A DNA stretch of 64,000 nt from Candidatus Marinacidobacterium sp. (lineage in GTDB: Bacteria > Acidobacteriota > Vicinamibacteria > Marinacidobacterales > Marinacidobacteraceae): assembly GCA_965204755.1 (NCBI GenBank), contig OZ242011.1, positions 2,464,001 through 2,528,000 of the forward strand, read 5' to 3'. The notes below the pieces were generated by a model. That model was given only the letters and a program-made list of their open reading frames with translations. It was not told the DNA's origin and searched no databases. The position numbers and the translations under genes are program-made. How positions within the stretch are numbered: position 1 is the first letter of the stretch; each line of letters begins with the position of its first letter. Below are positions 53,346 to 62,632 of this stretch, piece by piece.

Positions 53346-53428
53346 GGGCGGGGCCCCGGCGGACTCACGAACGGGACGCCGGCGGACTCACGGGCGGGGG
53401 CGGACTCACGGGCGCCGGCGGGCTCACG
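53342..53428. repeat. Degenerate short direct repeats (GCGGACTCACG) between sufS and sufU
   Basis: TCACG at 53342, 53365, 53388, 53406 and 53424. Confidence 0.75.
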
Positions 53429-54662
53429 GGCGGAAGATCCCGATGGCGGTTCGGAGCCCGTCGGCCAGCCGTTCCGCTTCCTCTTCGGTGTTGTAGAGCC
53501 CGAACGAGGCGCGCACCGTCGCCGGAACCCCGAACCGCTCCATCAGCGGCTGCGCGCAGTGGTGCCCGGTGCGGACGCAGACGCCCTCCCGGTCGAGCAC
53601 CGTCCCCAGGTCGTGCGGGTGGATCCCCTCGACGGTGAAGGAAACGACCGCCGCTTTCCCCGGCGCGGTCCCGACGACCCGGACGCCCGGAATCTCCGCG
53701 AGCAGCCGCTCGGTCCGCTCGCGCAGCCGCTCTTCGTGGGCGGCGACCGCCTCCACGCCGAGGGCGTCGAGGTAGTCGGCGGCCGCCGCCAGCCCCACCG
53801 GGCCGGAGATGTTCGGCGTGCCGGCCTCGAACTTGGCCGGGGGATCCGCGTAGGTGGTCCCTTCGATCCGCACGCTGCGGATCATCTCGCCGCCGCCCTG
53901 GTACGGCGGGAGTCGCTCGAGCAGGTCCTTCCGGCCCCAGAGGACGCCGATCCCGGAGGGGCCGTACATCTTGTGCCCGGACACCGCGTAGAGGTCGCAG
54001 CCCAGGTCCGGCGCCGCGACGCGCAGGTGCGGGGCCGCCTGCGCCCCGTCCACGACGACGAACGCGCCGTTCTCCCGCGCCGTCGCCGCCATCTCCCGCA
54101 CCGGGTTCACCGTCCCCAGCGCGTTCGAGACATGCACCAGCGAAACGATCTTCACGCGGGGCGTCAGCCGGCGGCGGAAGTCGTCGAGGTCGAGTTCGCC
54201 GGCGTCGGTGACCGAAACCGCCGAGACCCGGGCGCCGATCGGCTCGGCGACCATCTGCCAGGGCACGATGTTGGAGTGGTGCTCCATCTCGGTGATCAGC
54301 ACTTCGTCGCCCTCGCGGAGCGCGTGGCGCCCGAGGCAGGAGGCCGCGAGGTTCAACCCCTCGGTGGCCCCGCGCACGAAGACGATCTCCTCCGGGGACT
54401 CCGCGGAGAGGAAGGCCGCCATCCGCGTCCGCGCCTGCTCGTACTGCCGGGTGGCCCGTTCCGACAGGACATGGACGCCACGGTGGATGTTCGCGTAGCC
54501 GGTCTCGTACATCCGGTTCACGGCGTCGAGCACCGCCCGCGGCTTCTGGGCGCTCGCCGCGTTGTCCAGGTAGGCGATCTCCTTCCCCCGCGCCTGCTGG
54601 CTCAGGATCGGGAAGTCGCCGCGGACCCGCTCCAGGTCGTACGCCGGGGCCGCGCCGCTCAT
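53424..54662 (-). CDS. sufS: Cysteine desulfurase SufS
   Basis: YLDNAASAQKP, ANIHRG, MEHHSNIVPW, DGAQA, SGHKMYGP, RTGHHCAQP. Confidence 0.97.
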   Translation of the reverse strand: MSGAAPAYDLERVRGDFPILSQQARGKEIAYLDNAASAQKPRAVLDAVNRMYETGYANIHRGVHVLSERATRQYEQARTRMAAFLSAESPEEIVFVRGATEGLNLAASCLGRHALREGDEVLITEMEHHSNIVPWQMVAEPIGARVSAVSVTDAGELDLDDFRRRLTPRVKIVSLVHVSNALGTVNPVREMAATARENGAFVVVDGAQAAPHLRVAAPDLGCDLYAVSGHKMYGPSGIGVLWGRKDLLERLPPYQGGGEMIRSVRIEGTTYADPPAKFEAGTPNISGPVGLAAAADYLDALGVEAVAAHEERLRERTERLLAEIPGVRVVGTAPGKAAVVSFTVEGIHPHDLGTVLDREGVCVRTGHHCAQPLMERFGVPATVRASFGLYNTEEEAERLADGLRTAIGIFRP

Positions 54663-56032
54663 GCCGGGGCCTCGCTCCACCGGGGCCGCATCGCCGCGAG
54701 TTCGGCCTCCGCGAGGGCGCGCACCGGCGCCGCGCCGGCCCGTTCGATGACTTCGCCGGCGAACGCCCGGATGAGGATCTCCCGCGAGTCCATCGCCCCG
54801 AGGCCGCGCGAGCGGAGGTAGAAGAGGGCGTCTTCGTCGAGCCGGCCGATCGCCGCGCCGTGAGCGCACTTCACATCGTCGGCGTTGATCTCCAGCCGGG
54901 GGCGGGTGTGCGTCTCCGCGCGGCGGGAGAGCAGCAGCGTCCGGTTCGCCTGCGCGGCGTCGGTCCCCACCGCCCCGGGAGTCACCACCACCTTCCCGTC
55001 GAACACCGCCCGCGCCCCCTCGGCCAGCACGCTCTTGAACAGTTGCCGACTCGAGCCGCGCGGCGCGGCGTGGACCACCAGCGTGTGGTGGTCGGCCGCG
55101 GCGGCCCCGGCGCCGAGGAACAGCCCGTTCAACTCGGCGTCCGCGCCTTCCGACCGGAGGAGCGCCCGCGCTTCGATGCGGGAACGGCCGGCCCCGAGCG
55201 AGAACACCGCGCACCGGAGGCGCGCGTCCCGCCCCAGTTCGAAGGTGACCCGCCCGGTGTGGGCGACCCGTTCCGGTTCCCGGTCCAGCCGGAGGTAGTG
55301 GAGTTCCGCGTTCTCGCCGATCCGGCAGAACGCGCTCGGATTCGTCCACCCGGAGTCCGCGCCGCCCTCGCCGCCCTCGCCGCGCTCGCCGCCCTCGTGC
55401 GCCTCGATCACCACCGCCCGGCTGCCCGCCCCCAGTTCGACGATGAATCGGGGGTGGAGCATCCGTTCCGCGCCCGGTTCCCCGCTGCGGCTCGAATGGA
55501 GCAGCACCGGCGGGCAGTCGGCGTCCGCGGGGACTTCGAGGCGCGCGCCGCAGTCGGAGAGCGCCGCGTTCAGCGTTTCCAGCGGGTGGGCGAGTGCGCC
55601 CTCCGCGTCCGCTTCGGGCCCGTTCCCGCCGGACTCGGCGCCCGCCCCGTCCTCCCCGAACCTAGCGGCGCCGGGGGAGAGGGCCGCGCCGCCCCGGCCG
55701 AAGGCCTCGATGTTCACCCCGCCACCGACTGGAGCGGAAACCGACTCCACCAGCCCGTTCCGCAGCCGGACGGCGTCCGCGAACCCCTCCGTCCAGTCCG
55801 GCGGCGTCCCGTTCGCCGGCGGGGCCCCTTCGAACGGACGGTAGAGCGCCTTGGTCAGGTCGAGACCGGAGTGTCTCCAGTCCTCGTCCCCGGCGGTGGG
55901 GAACCCGCCGCGCGCGAAGAACTCCCCGACCAACCGCCGGCGCCGCGTCCCCTCCGCCCCTGCCTCCATCCGCCCGGCGCAGTCGAGGTAGTGCGGCTCG
56001 GCGCCCCGGCCGGGCCCCGACTCCGAAGGCAT
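54659..56032 (-). CDS. sufD: Fe-S cluster assembly protein SufD
   Basis: FPT..EDWRH, AVFDGK, TDAAQ, PRLEINADDVKCAHGA, LFYLRSRG. Confidence 0.95.
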   Translation of the reverse strand: MPSESGPGRGAEPHYLDCAGRMEAGAEGTRRRRLVGEFFARGGFPTAGDEDWRHSGLDLTKALYRPFEGAPPANGTPPDWTEGFADAVRLRNGLVESVSAPVGGGVNIEAFGRGGAALSPGAARFGEDGAGAESGGNGPEADAEGALAHPLETLNAALSDCGARLEVPADADCPPVLLHSSRSGEPGAERMLHPRFIVELGAGSRAVVIEAHEGGERGEGGEGGADSGWTNPSAFCRIGENAELHYLRLDREPERVAHTGRVTFELGRDARLRCAVFSLGAGRSRIEARALLRSEGADAELNGLFLGAGAAAADHHTLVVHAAPRGSSRQLFKSVLAEGARAVFDGKVVVTPGAVGTDAAQANRTLLLSRRAETHTRPRLEINADDVKCAHGAAIGRLDEDALFYLRSRGLGAMDSREILIRAFAGEVIERAGAAPVRALAEAELAAMRPRWSEAPA

Positions 56033-56052
56033 CGCGCGGCCGGGGTGTCCGC

Positions 56053-56817
56053 TCAGACCGCGGCCGGCTCGAGCGGCTTCCCGTACCCCTCGCGTTCGAG
56101 CCGCAGCGCGAGTTCGCCGCCGCCCGAATCCACGATCCGGCCGCCCTGCAGCACATGCACCCGGTCGGGGACGATGTGGTTCAGCAGCCGCTGGTAGTGG
56201 GTGATCACGAGGAACGAGCGCTCCGGCGACCGCATCCGGTTCACGCCGTCGGCGACGATGCGGAGCGCGTCGATGTCCAGCCCGGAGTCGGTCTCGTCCA
56301 GCACCGCGAGCGTCGGCTCCAGCACCGACAACTGGAGGATTTCGTTCCGCTTCTTCTCGCCGCCGGAGAAGCCCTCGTTCACCGGCCGCTTCACCAGGTC
56401 GGCGTCGAAGTCCAGCGCCTTCACCCGCTCCCGCATCAACGAGAGGAAGTCCACTGCGTCGAGTTCCGGCAGGCCCCGGTGCCTGCGCACTTCGTTGAGC
56501 GCCGCCTTGAGGAAGTAGGTGTTGTTGACCCCGGGGATCTCCACCGGATACTGGAACGCGAGGAACACGCCCCGGCGGGCGCGCTCCTCCGGCTCTGCCT
56601 CCGTCAGGTCCTCGCCCCGGTAGCGGATCGTCCCGGCGGTGATCTCGTAGCCCTCGCGTCCGGCGATCACATGCGCCAGCGTGCTCTTGCCGGAGCCGTT
56701 CGGGCCCATGACCGCGTGCGTCTCCCCCGGCGGGATCTCCAGATCGAGCCCGCGCAGGATCGGTTTGCCGGAGGCGGCGACTTCGAGCCCGCGGATCTCG
56801 AGCAGCGGCGGACTCAC
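56053..56817 (-). CDS. sufC: Fe-S cluster assembly ATPase SufC
   Basis: [54 protein letters not shown]; GTG start overlapping the sufB stop. Confidence 0.97.
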
Positions 56818-58295
56818 CCCACGGCTCCTTCGAGGCTCACGCCCAGCAGTTTCTGCGCTTCCACCGCGAACTCCATCGGCAACTCGGACAGAACTTCCCG
56901 CGCGAACCCGTTGACGATGAGCGAGACCGCCTCTTCCGGGTCGAGCCCGCGCTGGCGGCAGTAGAACAACTGGTCCTCGCCGATGCGGGAGGTGCTGGCC
57001 TCGTGTTCGAGTTGGGCGTCCGGGTTGGCCACATCTATATAAGGGACCGTGTGGGCGCCGCAGTCCGGGCCGATGAGCAGCGAGTCGCACTGCGAGAAGT
57101 TGCGCGCCCGGTCCGCTCCGGGAAGCACCTTGACCTGGCCCCGGTAGGTGTTCTGGCCCCGGCCGGCGGAGATGCCCTTCGAGATGATGGTGCTCCGGGT
57201 GTTCTTCCCGATGTGGATCATCTTGGTGCCGGTGTCCGCCTGCTGGCGGTTCGCGGTGATGGCCACCGAGTAGAACTCGCCCACCGAGTCGTCCCCGACC
57301 AGCAGGCAACTCGGGTACTTCCAGGTGATCGCCGAGCCGGTCTCCACCTGCGTCCAGGAGATGCGCGACCGGGCGCCGGCGCACTTTCCCCGCTTGGTGA
57401 CGAAGTTGTAGATGCCCCCGACGCCGTCCTTGTCTCCCGGATACCAGTTCTGCACCGTCGAGTACTTGATGCGGGCGTCCTCGAGCGCGACCAGTTCCAC
57501 CACCGCGGCGTGCAGTTGGTTCTCGTCCCGCATCGGCGCGGTGCAGCCTTCGAGGTAACTCACTTCGCTGCCCCGGTCGGCCACGATGAGCGTGCGTTCG
57601 AACTGGCCGGTCTCGGACGCGTTGATCCGGAAGTAGGTCGAGAGTTCCATCGGGCAGCGGACGCCCGGCGGGATATAGACGAAGGACCCGTCGGAGAACA
57701 CCGCGGAGTTCAGGCAGGCGAAGAAGTTGTCCGAGTGCGGCACGACCGTTCCCAGGTATCGGCGCACCAGGTCCGGGTGCTCCCGGACCGCTTCCGAGAA
57801 ACTGCAGAAGACGATCCCCAGGTCGGCCAGTTTGGCCTTGAAGGTGGTCGCCACCGACACGCTGTCGAACACCGCGTCCACCGCGACTCCGGCCAGCCGC
57901 TGCTGCTCGGCCAGCGGAATGCCCAGTTTCTCGTAGGTGGCGCGGAGTTCCGGGTCGATGTCGTCGAGGCTCTTCGGGCCGTCGGCCACCGCGCTCTTCG
58001 GCGCCGCGTAGTAGCGGATCTCGTCGTAGCGGATCGGCGGATAGGAGACCTTGGCCCAGTTCGGCTCTTCCATCTCCAGCCAGATGCGGTAGGCGGCGAG
58101 CCGCCAGTCGAGCAGCCACTCCGGCTCCTCTTTCTTCGAGGAGATGAGGCGGACGACTTCTTCGGAGAGTCCCGGGGGGATCGTCTCGGTTTCGATGTCG
58201 GTGACGAACCCGTAGGCGTACTCGCGCTCGACGAGGTTCTTGACCTCGTCGGCGCCGAGTTGTTTCCGGGGTTCGACGGCGGCGGCGTTCGGCAT
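56814..58295 (-). CDS. sufB: Fe-S cluster assembly protein SufB
   Basis: [60 protein letters not shown]. Confidence 0.98.
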
Positions 58296-58314
58296 GGGAT
58301 CTACGGGAGGGGAC

Positions 58315-58857
58315 TCAGCCCGCCGCTCCGGCGGCGGGGGGCGACGGGGAGGCGCTCGGCAGGCGCGGGAAGGCCGCGCGGGCGGGGGGCGGCGCCGGCG
58401 CGGCGGCCTCCGGCGGGGCAGGGGAGTCGTCGGGGAACTCCTCGGGAAAGTCCGCGCCGGGCAGCAGGTGCGAGAGCGTCAGGCGGGAGAGCGTCCTGGC
58501 CACCAGGTCGTGGACCCGTTGGAGCGGCCCGCGCACGCAGCAGGTCGGGGTGAGCGAGCAGTTGTGCTCGTCGAGGCCGCATTCCACGAGCGCCAGCGGC
58601 CCCTCCACGGCCTCGATGACCTCGATGAGCGGGACTTCGCCCGGGGGCCGGGCCAGCCGATACCCCCCCAGGACTCCCTGGCGCGTGCTGACCAGTCCCG
58701 CTCGCCGCAGCCCCTGCAGGATCTTGGCGATCAGGTCCGCCGGGAGACCCCGGCCGGCGGCGACCCGCCGCGCGCTGAGCGTCTCGTCAGCCGGGAGCGC
58801 CGCCAGGTCCGAAAGAGCCATCAGGGCGTAGTCGGTGCTCCGGGAGAGACGGATCAT
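58315..58857 (-). CDS. Rrf2-family (IscR/SufR-like) transcriptional regulator
   Basis: TDYAL, KILQGL..AGLV...[16 protein letters not shown], Cys cluster [16 protein letters not shown]. Confidence 0.93.
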
Positions 58858-59259: not shown

Positions 59260-60159
59260 ATGGCGCGCCGCCCCGCTCCCGCCCCGCCTGCCGGAACCCC
59301 GGCCGGGACCCCGGCCGACGCCTCGGCCGGGGCCGCGTCCGACCCCGCCGTCCGGCGGGACCGCCGAACCAGGCGCGGCCGCGGCCCTTGGGCGGCCCCG
59401 AAGACCGCCCGCGCCGCGACCCGCCGGGATTCCGAGCCCGGCGACGGTCCGGAACCGGCCGCCCCGGACCCCGGGGCGCCGGACTGGAAGCGGGCGACCG
59501 CCGCCCTCTCGCGGCGCGACCCGGCGCTCCGCGCCCTGATCCGGCGCGTCGGCCCCTGCACGCTCGCGCCCCGCGAGAACTCCTTCGGCGGGCTGGCCGG
59601 CGCCATCGTCGCCCAGCAGATCTCCGCCGCCGCCGCCACCACGATCCACACCCGCCTCTGGAGCCTCACCGGCGGCCGCCCGCCGACGCCGGAGGACCTC
59701 CTGCGCCGCCGCGAGACGACGCTCCGGCGGGTGGGCCTCTCCCGCCAGAAGATCGCCTACCTCCGCGACCTGGCCCGCCGGGTCCGCGACGGCGTCCTCG
59801 ACTTGGCGGCGCTCCCCGGCCTCCCCGACGACGAAGTGCGCCGGGAACTCACCGCCGTCCGCGGGATCGGCCGGTGGACCGCCGACATGCACCTCATCTT
59901 CACCCTGAACCGCCCCGATGTGTTCGCTCCGGGCGACGCCGCCGTCCTCGCCGCCATGCGCGACCTCTACCGCCTCCCGGAAGACGCCCCCGCCGAGACC
60001 TACGAGGAAATCAGCGCCCGCTGGCGCCCCTACCGCAGCGTCGGCGTCTGGTACATGTACGAACACCTCCACGCCCTCCGCGCCGCCGCCCGCGGGGCGC
60101 CCCCGCCGGCGCCGCGCGACCGGGCGGCGCCGGCTACACTCACGGGCAACCGTGGGTGA
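59260..60159 (+). CDS. DNA-3-methyladenine glycosylase II family (AlkA-like, HhH-GPD)
   Basis: AIVAQQIS..AA, GLSRQK..Y, LTAVRGIGRWTADM, RPDVF..GD, WRPYRS; start uncertain. Confidence 0.9.
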   Translation: MARRPAPAPPAGTPAGTPADASAGAASDPAVRRDRRTRRGRGPWAAPKTARAATRRDSEPGDGPEPAAPDPGAPDWKRATAALSRRDPALRALIRRVGPCTLAPRENSFGGLAGAIVAQQISAAAATTIHTRLWSLTGGRPPTPEDLLRRRETTLRRVGLSRQKIAYLRDLARRVRDGVLDLAALPGLPDDEVRRELTAVRGIGRWTADMHLIFTLNRPDVFAPGDAAVLAAMRDLYRLPEDAPAETYEEISARWRPYRSVGVWYMYEHLHALRAAARGAPPPAPRDRAAPATLTGNRG

Positions 60160-60325
60160 ACCTCGAACCTTGAACCTGTCTTTTTCTACTCAAGGAGTCG
60201 AGGCCATTGCGCTGGCGACCTCACCGGCGCTTCCCCGCGCGGGAAGCGCGATTCGGGGCTCTGAGGCCCCCCTTTTCGACCGCGGCTTCGGCCGCCGGAA
60301 CCTCCGCGGCGACTCGCGGAGGCGG
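60147..60325 (+). ncRNA. Candidate structured RNA/leader of unknown family
   Basis: TACACT -10-like hexamer at 60135-60140 followed by five consecutive hairpins including a cUUCGg tetraloop; no known family recognised. Confidence 0.4.
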
Positions 60326-60376
60326 CCGCCGGCCCGGCCCGCCGGCCTTCCCGTCCGCCAACCACCGGAGGCCGGC

Positions 60377-60727
60377 ATGCCCCGGTTCCTGATCGTCGTG
60401 GCCGCTGTCGGCGGACTCTGCGGGGTGGCCGCGCTGCTGCTCGGCGTCCTCGCCCTGCCCATGGGGCTACCGGCGCCCCTGCTCGCCGAGCGGCTCTACA
60501 GCCAAGTCTCGCTCCACCTCTGGTTCGTCGAAATCCTCCTGATCCTGGTCGCCGTCGGCGCGGCGGTCTTCGGGTTGGCCGGCTACCAGTCCATCCGGGA
60601 AGTCGCCGCCACAATGGCCCGCGCCGAGGCCCGCCGCGTGGCCTCGGCGCAAATGGTGGAACACCGCAGGAGCCTTCGCCGCGGCCTCGGCGAGGGGGAG
60701 ACCAACGACGAGAAAGGAACGGAGTAA
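60377..60727 (+). CDS. Small two-TM hypothetical protein
   Basis: RBS GGAGG; two hydrophobic helices, then FGLAGYQSIREVAATMARAEA helix; stop 5 nt before the IrrE-like gene. Confidence 0.75.
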   Translation: MPRFLIVVAAVGGLCGVAALLLGVLALPMGLPAPLLAERLYSQVSLHLWFVEILLILVAVGAAVFGLAGYQSIREVAATMARAEARRVASAQMVEHRRSLRRGLGEGETNDEKGTE

Positions 60728-60732
60728 CGCCC

Positions 60733-61215
60733 ATGGCCCTGCCCAAGATCCACATGGAGATCATCCGCGAGTACCAGCGGAAGGTGCCGGTCGCGGTGGA
60801 CGAGATCGCGAAGGAACTCGGGCTGAAGTCGTACTGGGGGATCTGGGACAACGGCGCGTCCGGCCGCATCGCCAAGGACCGGAAGAAGGGCGGGAAGAGC
60901 GGTTACGCCCTCATCGTCAACCGGGACCACTCGCCGGAGCGCCGGCGGTTCACCGTCGCCCACCAGATCGCCCACTTCCTCATGCACAAGAAGGAAATGG
61001 GCGACAGCCTTGTCGACGACTCGCTCTACCGGAGCAAACTGGGCGGCCCGTACGAAGTGGCGGCCAACGACTTCGCGGCCTGGCTCCTCATGCCCTGGAA
61101 CATGATCCTGCACGAAGTGGCCTGCGGCGCGGAGACCGTCGAGAAGTTGGCGAAGATCTTCCAAGTCTCCAACAGTTGCATGGCCGTTCGCCTCGGCTTC
61201 CCGTTCGAGGACTGA
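60733..61215 (+). CDS. ImmA/IrrE-family (peptidase M78-like) protein, copy 1, HExxH changed to HQIAH
   Basis: PVAVDEIAKELGL, ASGRI, IVN..HSPERRRFTVAHQIAHFLMH, E..ANDFAAWLLMP, LAKIFQVS..MAVRL. Confidence 0.9.
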   Translation: MALPKIHMEIIREYQRKVPVAVDEIAKELGLKSYWGIWDNGASGRIAKDRKKGGKSGYALIVNRDHSPERRRFTVAHQIAHFLMHKKEMGDSLVDDSLYRSKLGGPYEVAANDFAAWLLMPWNMILHEVACGAETVEKLAKIFQVSNSCMAVRLGFPFED

Positions 61216-61257
61216 CCGGGCCGGTGCAAGATCGCCCGGCCTCGCGCCGGGCCGGCG

Positions 61258-61317
61258 TCGGTCCGGCCGCTTCGCGACCCGGAGGCAGGGCTTGCCGGTC
61301 TTCCGGCCTTCGGGGGA
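61258..61317 (-). pseudogene. Decayed duplicate of the peroxiredoxin 3' end
   Basis: 51/60 nt match to 61973-62032; reads SPEGRKTGKPCLRVAKRPDR versus FPEGWKTVKPYLRVVKQPD*. Confidence 0.85.
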
Positions 61318-61417
61318 CCCGCCCTTCGCGCCGCCGCCCGCCGCCCGCCGGCCGCGGCCGCGCCTCCGCTGCCGGCGGCGGGATGCCGACCATGAGTAGA
61401 GTGACGGGGGAACACCC

Positions 61418-61900
61418 ATGACCATGCCCAAGACCCACATGGAGATCATCCACGAGTACCAGCGGACGCTGCCGGTCGCGGTGGACGAGATCGCGAAGGA
61501 ACTCGGGCTGAAGTCGTACCGGGGGATCTGGGACAACGGCGCGTCCGGCCGCATCGCCAAGGACCGGAAGAAGGGCGGGAAGAGCGGGTACGCCCTCATC
61601 GTCAACCGGGACCACTCGCCGGAGCGCCGGCGGTTCACCGTCGCCCACCAGATCGCCCACTTCCTCATGCACCAGAAGGAAATGGGCGACAGCCTCGTCG
61701 ACGACTCGCTCTACCGGAGCAAACTCGGCGGCCGGTACGAAGGCGAGGCGAACGACTTCGCGGCCTGGCTCCTCATGCCCTGGAACATGATCCTGCACGA
61801 GGTGGCCTGCGGCGCGGAGACCGTCGAGAAGTTGGCGAAGATCTTCCAGGTCTCCAACAGTTGCATGGCCGTCCGCCTCGGCTTCCCCTTCGAGGACTGA
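61418..61900 (+). CDS. ImmA/IrrE-family protein, copy 2, also HQIAH
   Basis: About 20 nt and 11 aa differences from copy 1 over 483 nt (manual count). Confidence 0.9.
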   Translation: MTMPKTHMEIIHEYQRTLPVAVDEIAKELGLKSYRGIWDNGASGRIAKDRKKGGKSGYALIVNRDHSPERRRFTVAHQIAHFLMHQKEMGDSLVDDSLYRSKLGGRYEGEANDFAAWLLMPWNMILHEVACGAETVEKLAKIFQVSNSCMAVRLGFPFED

Positions 61901-61941
61901 CCCGGTCGGCGCGGGATCGCCCGGCCCCGCGCCGGGCGGGC

Positions 61942-61977
61942 GGCGTCAGTGGCGGGCGTCAGTGGGCGGGCGTCAGT
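61942..61977. repeat. GGCGTCAGT x3 spanning the peroxiredoxin stop codon
   Basis: Copies at 61942, 61955 and 61969. Confidence 0.75.
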
Positions 61978-62632
61978 CCGGCTGTTTCACGACCCGGAGG
62001 TAGGGCTTGACGGTCTTCCAGCCCTCGGGGAAGCGCTCGCGGGCCGCTTCGTCCGAGACGGCGGGGACGATGATGCAGTCCTCGCCGGCCTTCCAGTCCG
62101 CCGGGGTGGCGACCTGGTGCTTCGCGGTGAGTTGGAGCGAGTCCACCACGCGAAGCAACTCGTCGAAGTTGCGGCCGGTGGCCATCGGGTAGGTGAGGAT
62201 CAGCCGGATCCGCTTGTCCGGCCCGATGATGAAGACGCAGCGCACGGTCAGGTTGTCCGCCGCCGTCCGCTCCCCGGCGCGCCCGAGCGCGTTCGGATGG
62301 ATCATGTCGTACAACTTGGAGACCCGCAGGTCCTCGTCGCCGATCATCGGGAAGTCGGGGGCGGCGCCCTGCGTCTCCTCGATGTCCTTCGACCAGGCGC
62401 GGTGGTCCTCCACCGAGTCCACGCTCAGCCCGATGAGCCGGACGCCGCGCCGCTCGAACTCCGGCTTCAGCCGGGCGGCGGTCCCGAGTTCGGTGGTGCA
62501 GACCGGGGTGAAGTCCTTGGGGTGGGAGAAGAGGATCGCCCAGGAGTCGCCGAGCCACTCGTGGAAGCGGATCTCCCCGTCGGTGGTGTCCTGGGTGAAG
62601 TCGGGGGCGACATCTCCGATGCGCAGCGCCAT
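61973..62632 (-). CDS. 1-Cys peroxiredoxin (Prx6 family)
   Basis: FSHPKDFTPVCTTE, GLSVDS, TVRCVFII, YPMATGRNFDELLR, VATPADW, KPYLR; RBS AAGGAG. Confidence 0.96.
   Translation of the reverse strand: MALRIGDVAPDFTQDTTDGEIRFHEWLGDSWAILFSHPKDFTPVCTTELGTAARLKPEFERRGVRLIGLSVDSVEDHRAWSKDIEETQGAAPDFPMIGDEDLRVSKLYDMIHPNALGRAGERTAADNLTVRCVFIIGPDKRIRLILTYPMATGRNFDELLRVVDSLQLTAKHQVATPADWKAGEDCIIVPAVSDEAARERFPEGWKTVKPYLRVVKQPD

Follow-up and report, generated by a model that had tools for sequence, protein, structure and literature searches.

What can peptidases of the ImmA/IrrE (M78) type do once the catalytic glutamate has been lost, and what do they share with a small membrane protein encoded just upstream? 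The question is raised by a locus in Candidatus Marinacidobacterium sp. (contig OZ242011.1, positions 2,464,001 to 2,528,000; this whole stretch of 64,000 nucleotides is hereafter the window), where a leader, a gene for a protein with two transmembrane (TM) segments and twin M78 genes follow one another on the same strand. ImmA/IrrE peptidases are understood as cutters of helix-turn-helix (HTH) repressors. No HTH gene adjoins the cassette among the open reading frame (ORF) translations of the window. The membrane protein and its minimal M78 peptidase, which has neither a GAF domain nor an HTH partner, constitute a self-contained two-gene cassette that is scattered across phyla; what it does is proposed more tentatively below. 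The features of the cassette are as follows.

60082-61974, plus strand: 1.9-kb insertion that comprises the leader, the TM gene and both M78 genes and is missing from G001, a genome of the same genus (blastn)
~60130-60376, plus strand: non-coding leader, with nucleotide homology to the leaders of loci L004 and L006
60377-60727, plus strand: membrane-protein gene, 116 amino acids (aa)
60733-61215, plus strand: M78 copy A, 160 aa, HQIAH; codon of Q78 CAG at 60964-60966, codon of E108 at 61054-61056
61249-61315, minus strand: non-coding, co-duplicated relic of the 3′-end of a peroxiredoxin (Prx) gene, 87% identical to 61964-62030
61418-61900, plus strand: M78 copy B, 160 aa, HQIAH; codon of Q78 at 61649-61651

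The start of copy A lies five bases 3′ of the membrane-gene stop, and copies A and B are separated by a 200-nt spacer containing the Prx relic. Two paralogous loci in the window's genome (G000), L003 and L004, encode further copies (~50% identity) that read HEIGH, each behind a homologous membrane-protein gene. The same pairing is found in relatives at loci L006 to L009 and L019, of which L006 and L019 belong to G001. No HTH ORF adjoins the cassette at L003, L004 or L006, where the membrane-protein gene occupies that place. The M78 subfamily is present in nine of 41 related genomes and, apart from those in the window, every distinct copy (19/19) has HExxH. Scanning genomes at one per species gave 425 confirmed relatives, with Caulobacter, Sphingobium and Rhizobium strains among the culturable carriers of an HExxH cassette, and context was counted in the 80 best loci, which derive from Acidobacteriota, Proteobacteria and other phyla; there, too, every M78 copy (83/83) carries HExxH. 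A hidden Markov model of the membrane protein (A6) matched one ORF, and no more, at 70 of these 80 loci and, after iteration, at 73; the match was directly upstream on the same strand in 70 loci. Among the seven loci lacking it, three have no upstream DNA and one retains a decayed relic. Beyond the pair itself, no Pfam family occurs upstream in more than two of 71 loci, while the downstream neighbors are Beta proteins (19/73), IS1595 transposases (7/73) and otherwise unrelated housekeeping genes. Tandem arrays of HExxH-bearing M78 genes behind one membrane gene were found in G001 (three at L019/L033, two at L006/L026) and in none of the other 78 loci.

The original prediction had thus identified a genuine module, in which a small membrane protein is paired with an M78 peptidase that lacks an HTH partner. 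Its further suggestion, that HQxxH defines a clade tied to the membrane gene, does not hold: the linkage, seen in 73 of the 80 loci, belongs to the entire HExxH subfamily. Those 73 loci likewise dispose of the possibility, raised there as grounds for abandoning the idea, that the TM gene shows no conserved linkage. A literature search did not find the pairing of a membrane protein with a bare M78 domain described; NetFlax Dataset S1 and Table S1 of the CapH/CapP preprint might list it.

Of the best 150 representatives drawn from 1.84 billion clustered proteins, 143 keep HExxH; six lack the Glu (having A, A, K, Q, H and D instead) and one lacks the first His. The Gln case, P0096, also reads HQIAH and, being only 37% identical to the window protein, must have acquired its Gln independently. 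No fusion of the membrane protein to M78 occurs among these 150. Nine or ten of them are long and possess an N-terminal extension; Xre-type or zinc-ribbon/MqsA-like extensions were noted in P0048, P0105, P0118, P0120, P0125, P0142, P0144, P0146 and P0172. The existence of such extended members indicates that the M78 subfamily exchanges a fused DNA-binding domain for a separate membrane partner. In the phage collection, 19 records had partial, distant M78 matches, none covering 80%, and the plasmid collection yielded three records.

Copies A and B match PF06114 Peptidase_M78 with E values of 1.8e-18 and 7.4e-19 (67 and 68.2 bits, the cut-off being 22). In each, the motif is H77-Q78-I-A-H81 (codons CAC CAG ATC GCC CAC), where the four paralogues examined have CAC GAG; residue 78 being Gln, neither twin has HExxH with the catalytic Glu, while H77, H81 and E108 are kept. 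The last of these aligns with E129, the third zinc ligand of CapP (numbering as in the 2022 CapH/CapP preprint). Inspection of the ORFs, the PF06114 matches and the codons therefore bears out what had been claimed of the twin genes, namely two 160-aa HQIAH proteins with the His ligands and the downstream Glu, and the presence of a two-TM gene upstream in the place of an HTH repressor was confirmed as well. The twins differ from each other at 11 of 160 residues and 20 of 483 nucleotides.

The predicted M78 structure (pLDDT 92.7) is matched best by CapP (7t5t), IrrE (3dti) and PprI (8sln) using Foldseek (probability 1.0), with a TM-score of 0.66 normalized to the query and 0.40 normalized to the targets, which are 240-291 aa long. 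A profile search of the sequence recovers the same three proteins (PDB CapP 7t5t, E 4.7e-10). The padloc capP model aligns with the twins (E 1.2e-24) at profile positions 9-150 of 242, positions 151-242 being unmatched, and matches to the padloc RmrA models (E down to 2e-12) are confined to the peptidase part, at positions ~180-290 of 357-400; the padloc gop model does not match the M78 peptidase. Neither the capP profile nor the fold comparison reveals a GAF domain in the 160-aa proteins, which end after the peptidase and a small helical subdomain. In CapP the change E98Q is described as catalytically dead in the 2022 preprint. For the HQ proteins we infer that cleavage has been lost and that binding to a partner is the most they could do. 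A family-invariant loop, DDxLYRS, occupies M78 residues 92-101 (61006-61035 in copy A), with a predicted β-strand at 92-95, and its position is that of the cysteine-switch loop of CapP as reported. Most of the other Glu-less representatives have lost some of YRS, which suggests that these residues may be part of the catalytic or autoinhibitory machinery.

The 116-aa membrane protein has TM1 at ~2-25 and TM2 at ~45-69, followed by the motif G69-Y70-Q and an acidic tail. Its predicted structure is a helical hairpin (helices 2-25 and 33-106; pLDDT 78), the second helix running on for ~35 residues past the membrane, to approximately residue 106, in what is predicted to be the cytoplasm. No Pfam, NCBIfam or padloc model matched the family above its cut-off, and the sources label it hypothetical. 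Phage_holin_3_6 scored 15.9 bits, short of the 28.4 needed to call it a holin, and the protein has no match in the phage collection. Protein Atlas returned unnamed clusters at 0.90-0.92 with recognition under the mark, which is a lead only. Ten variants, 75-88% identical, have every ORF open, one group of them carrying an in-frame deletion of 4 aa. Among the listed differences between the window and contigs of runs X6 and X11 (the 17 runs were all contigs, with no RNA run among them), most are concentrated at 60567-60662, the codons of the cytoplasmic helix and tail. On these sequences the tail seems to be evolving fast. Co-folding of the M78 protein with the membrane-protein tail (residues 62-116, each with its own alignment) gave values of 0.37, 0.02 and 0.37, the control giving 0.18.

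The tandem unit repeats every 685 nt, and 60719-61018 is 96% identical to 61404-61703. For the Prx relic the start-to-start distance to 61964-62030 is 715, offset by a 30-nt indel, and blastn gives 87.3% identity over 55 nt. The original prediction put the divergence at about 4% for the coding copies, which stands, and at 15% for the non-coding tail, which was measured at ~13% with the indel offset. A tandem repeat of 96% identity could in principle be mis-assembled, yet the idea that the twins are an artefact is vanishingly improbable: contigs of runs X1 and X3, which come from two studies, contain the junction that returns from 61424 to 60740, the copies can be told apart at 20 positions, and other assemblies contain both A-like and B-like proteins. 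The artefact named in the prediction as a possible undoing is thereby put to rest. The locus was found in contigs from four studies. In X6 and X11 a single-copy form runs from AlkA-side sequence or from the membrane gene as far as 61257 and there enters the Prx-side spacer, occupying the same insertion site as the two-copy form. Three further HQIAH proteins in the protein collection, 90-94% identical, are A-like (two) or B-like (one) around residues 106-110; one protein, P0001, looks like a patchwork of A-like and B-like segments. The duplication is genuine and polymorphic, and gene conversion between A and B is likely.

The genes on either side of the cassette are outside the module.

59260-60159, plus strand: AlkA-like HhH-GPD glycosylase gene (PF00730, E 4.8e-15)
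61973-62632, minus strand: 1-Cys-type Prx gene (NCBIfam PRK13189, E 9.6e-59)

The AlkA-like and Prx genes are direct neighbors in G001, separated by 119 nt; when G001:C1:1378400-1379000 was compared with the window by blastn, alignment was confined to 59826-60081 (85%) and 61975-62200 (86%). Since homology stops at 60081 and resumes at 61975 across a junction that is intact in G001, the window cassette is a secondary, inserted copy, and the repair and redox genes around it are uninformative on its function. The AlkA/Prx/ADP-ribosylglycohydrolase neighborhood, which had been offered as a functional clue, is incidental. The AlkA and Prx families are likewise not recurrent beside the 80 related loci. 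The Prx and ADP-ribosylglycohydrolase genes lie on the minus strand, convergent towards the cassette. Some 26 codons at the end of the AlkA-like gene (60082-60159) fall within the segment absent from G001, so the insertion remodelled the C-terminus of that protein. Farther upstream, reading of the ORF translations by eye places a suf-type Fe-S assembly operon at 53424-58857 (minus strand), and the sole regulator near the cassette is an Rrf2-type ORF (58315-58857) that is part of it.

In a quick tree, from which five duplicate loci and short matches were excluded, the five HQ sequences group in a single clade with support of 100 and a stem of 0.42. Sister to it are P0004 and the peptidase encoded second at locus L006 (G001_L006b, stem 0.41), while the first L006 peptidase groups with L004. 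On the sequences assembled here, this HQ form is private to one young, narrow sponge/marine lineage of at least 90% identity. The copy was inserted between the AlkA-like and Prx genes with its peptidase already changed from Glu to Gln (GAG to CAG), and the tandem duplication that carried the 3′-end of Prx along came later.

The two copies differ by nine synonymous and 11 non-synonymous changes (dN/dS 0.33); 11 or fewer non-synonymous changes of 20 have a binomial P of 0.019 under the neutral expectation. The ratio was taken between the two copies only because a scan of metagenome contigs for DNA of the HQ lineage produced 159 pattern matches, of which none was confirmed. Of 34 columns conserved to 85% or more among 208 other subfamily sequences, the HQ proteins keep 30, their changes besides E78Q (I to L, L to M and A to C) all being conservative, and all five come from intact ORFs. 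Small as the numbers are, they argue for continued constraint on both ORFs, and the suggestion that both are being maintained is upheld. The prediction had also allowed that a Gln private to this genome, with HExxH relatives and relaxed selection, would tell against it; the Gln is indeed private to one narrow lineage and the relatives are HExxH (19/19 and 83/83), but a dN/dS of 0.33 does not indicate relaxation.

The 230-nt leader has a −10-like TACACT (60135-60140) and three tandem heptads, GAACCTN (60158-60178), and contains hairpins at 60161-60203, 60203-60216 and 60227-60249. A terminator-like GGGGC..GCCCC at 60255-60270 is followed by CCTTTTCG, and GGAGG lies 6 nt 5′ of the membrane-gene ATG. 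The GAACCTN repeats, similar GAAC/TTGA versions of which are retained in the L004 and L006 leaders, may be operator or −35-like elements. The putative promoter of the cassette sits within the coding tail of the AlkA-like gene. Folding gave −114.7 kcal/mol (z = −1.93), seven of 200 shuffles being equally stable, which is a modest gain. The L004 leader is 72% identical over 138 nt (E 7e-16) and that of L006 is likewise homologous; an alignment of the three has 34 consensus pairs, three with compensatory changes. Common to all are four hairpins, a −10-like TAnnnT and, ahead of a T-rich stretch, a GGGG-N-CCCC stem. Among 28 family genomes the L004 leader was the sole real match, the remainder being short GC-rich stretches; Rfam gave nothing at E<=1 in L001, L003, L004 and L005, and a consensus scan of 59900-62100 found no promoter and one terminator-like site where 1.2 were expected. 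A possible upstream ORF within the leader, which would run from TTG 60207 to TGA 60392 and is uninterrupted in the corresponding register of L004 and L006, was rejected because its GC2 of 0.67-0.83 and GC3 of 0.77-0.79 contrast with a GC3 of 0.89-0.94 in real genes, and because the window and L004 differ by 4-nt indels, with 6, 10 and 12 differences per codon position. By nucleotide comparison, the leader is a conserved 5′ region confined to this genus. The hairpin-rich leader that had been proposed as part of the module is present in the window, with homologs at L004 and L006 only.

Some relatives of the cassette keep the company of defense genes. Locus L004 lies directly upstream of, and on the same strand as, DrmA (E 2.9e-261) and DrmC (E 5e-80), and is syntenic with L006 of G001, which is also upstream of DrmA/DrmC. 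Upstream of L004/L025 (G000:C1, ~3,599,000-3,619,000), an MmeI-like gene is apparently split by a DDE transposase. In 20 of the 80 loci, all from one clade, the membrane gene and M78 are joined by a Beta gene (PF14350; padloc beta E 3.7e-54), and about half of these 20 also have a convergent padloc 'cll' gene. The Beta-linked loci are L072, L076, L077, L083-L085, L087, L089-L091, L094, L095, L097, L098 and L100-L105. In gene content this clade looks like a membrane-protein version of PD-lambda-2/gop-beta-cII.

How, then, might the cassette work? Our preferred reading, held with rather less than even confidence and drawn by analogy, is that it is a toxin-antitoxin or abortive-infection pair of the RosmerTA type, the HQ peptidases of the window being non-cleaving binders of the membrane effector. 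The tight spacing, autonomous scattering, several copies per genome, defense-gene company and the RosmerTA precedent all prompt this reading. The membrane protein would be a membrane-perturbing effector, which the peptidase would control by recognizing that protein's cytoplasmic helix and tail; the peptidase of the HQ lineage, if it acts at all, would bind zinc and its partner without cutting, as a natural substrate trap by which the membrane protein is neutralized or shielded, and the second M78 copy would add dosage. A neutralizer or decoy appears to be the most economical role for the twins, and the G001 arrays of two and three intact peptidase genes per membrane gene fit a neutralizer better than a toxin. 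Several facts weigh against this reading. The toxicity of the membrane protein is argued only by analogy, no family having matched above cut-off and no phage match having been found. The Glu is present in 97% of the 208 other subfamily sequences, and such near-universal HExxH says that catalysis matters for normal function of the cassette; a Glu-less copy may be simply disabled. The HQ clade deviates at four to five conserved columns against a median of one, and dN/dS rests on 20 differences, a value that gene conversion could distort. RmrA proteins usually bear an HTH and have ~370-400 aa, only their peptidase part matching the window proteins, and in PD-lambda-2, as reported, the HTH-peptidase was the toxic component.

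One competing account is decay: a secondary copy lost catalysis and is on its way to becoming a pseudogene, its duplication and apparent constraint reflecting recent history and gene conversion. It would explain the Gln where 97% of relatives have Glu and the excess of conserved-column deviations (four to five, median one), and the family does erode, seven of the best 150 representatives having lost part of HExxH, most with further YRS losses; moreover, this copy was inserted into a genome of symbiont type, which holds two intact paralogous cassettes. We nevertheless consider decay unlikely, given that five peptidase and 11 membrane-protein variants have no stop or frameshift, that the membrane-protein indel is in frame, that dN/dS is 0.33 (P = 0.019), and that the adjoining non-coding relic stands at 87% identity while the coding copies stand at 96%. 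Nor is the HQ stem (0.42) longer than that of its sister G001_L006b (0.41) in the quick tree. A different view of the Glu-less twins arises if M78 is normally a sensor and activator that, once triggered, cuts the cytoplasmic tail of the membrane protein so that it forms pores; E to Q would then have disarmed the activator, leaving the twins as dead weight or as dominant-negative decoys against the two active paralogues. Proteolytic licensing of pore partners is known from Pepco and EACC1 (PMC12642450), defense genes occur in the context, the long cytoplasmic helix and acidic tail vary fast between strains, and the retention of HExxH in 143 of the best 150 representatives and in 83/83 copies of the 80 loci would mean that the normal cassette needs cleavage. 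The Pepco and EACC1 proteases are, however, sensor-fused serine/cysteine enzymes, whereas the window M78 proteins are bare 160-aa domains without a sensor; a disarmed activator should decay, yet both the M78 and membrane ORFs are intact with dN/dS 0.33; and arrays of active copies, as in G001, are not obviously useful to an activator. We regard this, too, as a minority explanation with a small share of the probability.

It is still less probable, though worth stating, that the roles are reversed, with M78 as the toxin and the membrane protein as antitoxin or anchor, E to Q being the usual first step of toxin inactivation. In 2009 Makarova reportedly predicted that COG2856 is a toxin partnered with Xre. 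Toxins often show repeated loss of catalytic residues, as is seen here in 7 of the best 150 representatives, antitoxin-first is reported as the commonest order among type II pairs overall, and the HTH-peptidase of PD-lambda-2 is reported to be toxic alone. Against this, two and three intact HExxH copies per membrane gene in G001 would overload a single antitoxin, both genes should drift after toxin inactivation yet look constrained, and the peptidase is treated as the antitoxin in the RosmerTA work. Very unlikely is a CapP/IrrE-like sensor of single-stranded DNA (ssDNA) or damage, a pseudoprotease here, functionally tied to the neighboring repair and redox genes. By profile and by fold the best matches are CapP and IrrE/PprI, one paralogous cassette lies ahead of a DISARM operon, and CapH/CapP-like pairs are reported beside DISARM in the 2022 preprint; but the ssDNA groove of CapP and PprI is described, in a 2026 preprint, as lying between the peptidase and GAF domains. 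Proteins that end at 160 aa, have no GAF domain and hence no such groove, cover capP positions 9-150 of 242, reach a target TM-score of 0.40 and lack an XRE partner give the sensor role proposed in the original prediction little to stand on, and neighbors that are incidental, with no AlkA or Prx family recurring beside the 80 related loci, offer it nothing more.

Taken jointly, the elements of the preferred toxin-antitoxin reading would make this an undescribed, phylum-spanning conflict cassette whose peptidase recognizes its membrane-perturbing partner by the cytoplasmic helix, the HQ twins being selected, dosage-amplified substrate-trap decoys that buffer against two active paralogous cassettes, one of which heads a DISARM operon; this whole chain we consider rather improbable. 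If the decoy reading is true, the independent HQIAH lineage of P0096 would mark a recurrent route from enzyme to regulator. The HQ lineage is a ready-made natural "trap" mutant with which to ask whether binding alone suffices. If the twins are merely decaying copies, the locus is ordinary. The value lies more in the cassette than in its Glu-less genes: an unnamed membrane protein is tied to a minimal ImmA/IrrE peptidase at no fewer than 73 loci in several phyla. A membrane-protein partner would, if its role is confirmed, widen the picture of the ImmA/IrrE peptidases and add a candidate family of toxin-antitoxin or abortive-infection systems.

Four groups of known systems invite comparison. In the Pepco and EACC1 modules, where proteolytic licensing of small pore-forming partners is presented as a widespread defense logic (PMC12642450), a small protein likewise stands beside a protease and membrane damage is licensed by cleavage. 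Their proteases are serine or cysteine enzymes fused to sensors, and their effectors have β-barrel or EACC1 folds, whereas the window cassette combines a metallopeptidase with an α-helical hairpin, and no homology was found. CapP and IrrE/PprI are closest in sequence and fold and share the HExxH...E layout of the metal site; the window M78 proteins differ in having no GAF domain, no XRE-family substrate gene, Gln for Glu, a membrane partner and no cysteine in the loop that holds the CapP cysteine switch. PD-lambda-2, composed of a HigB-like protein, an HTH-M78 protein and Beta, finds its counterpart in the membrane gene, M78 and Beta of the sister clade. The window clade itself, unlike PD-lambda-2 and P4 gop-beta-cII, has neither Beta nor cll, the next gene in the window being Prx, and its first gene encodes a membrane protein rather than a HigB-like one. 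RosmerTA, a pair of RmrT toxin and RmrA Zn-peptidase antitoxin, corresponds to the ImmA node "D25" of the NetFlax network. Its RmrA proteins, of ~370-400 aa and often with an N-terminal HTH, differ from the bare 160-aa domains of the window, which have no N-terminal extension, do not extend to a full-length RmrA match and lack the catalytic Glu, and the membrane partner of the window matches no padloc or Pfam family. The likenesses are a tight two-gene pair, an ImmA/IrrE (M78) partner, diverse partners, a common toxin-first order (58% of ImmA-node pairs) and defense contexts; the RosmerTA toxins are themselves diverse, and one of them, localized to the membrane by its C-terminal region, depolarizes cells. 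Of the roles first suggested for the twins, that of an antitoxin controlling a membrane effector is therefore the one that would come closest to a known system, with RosmerTA as its precedent.

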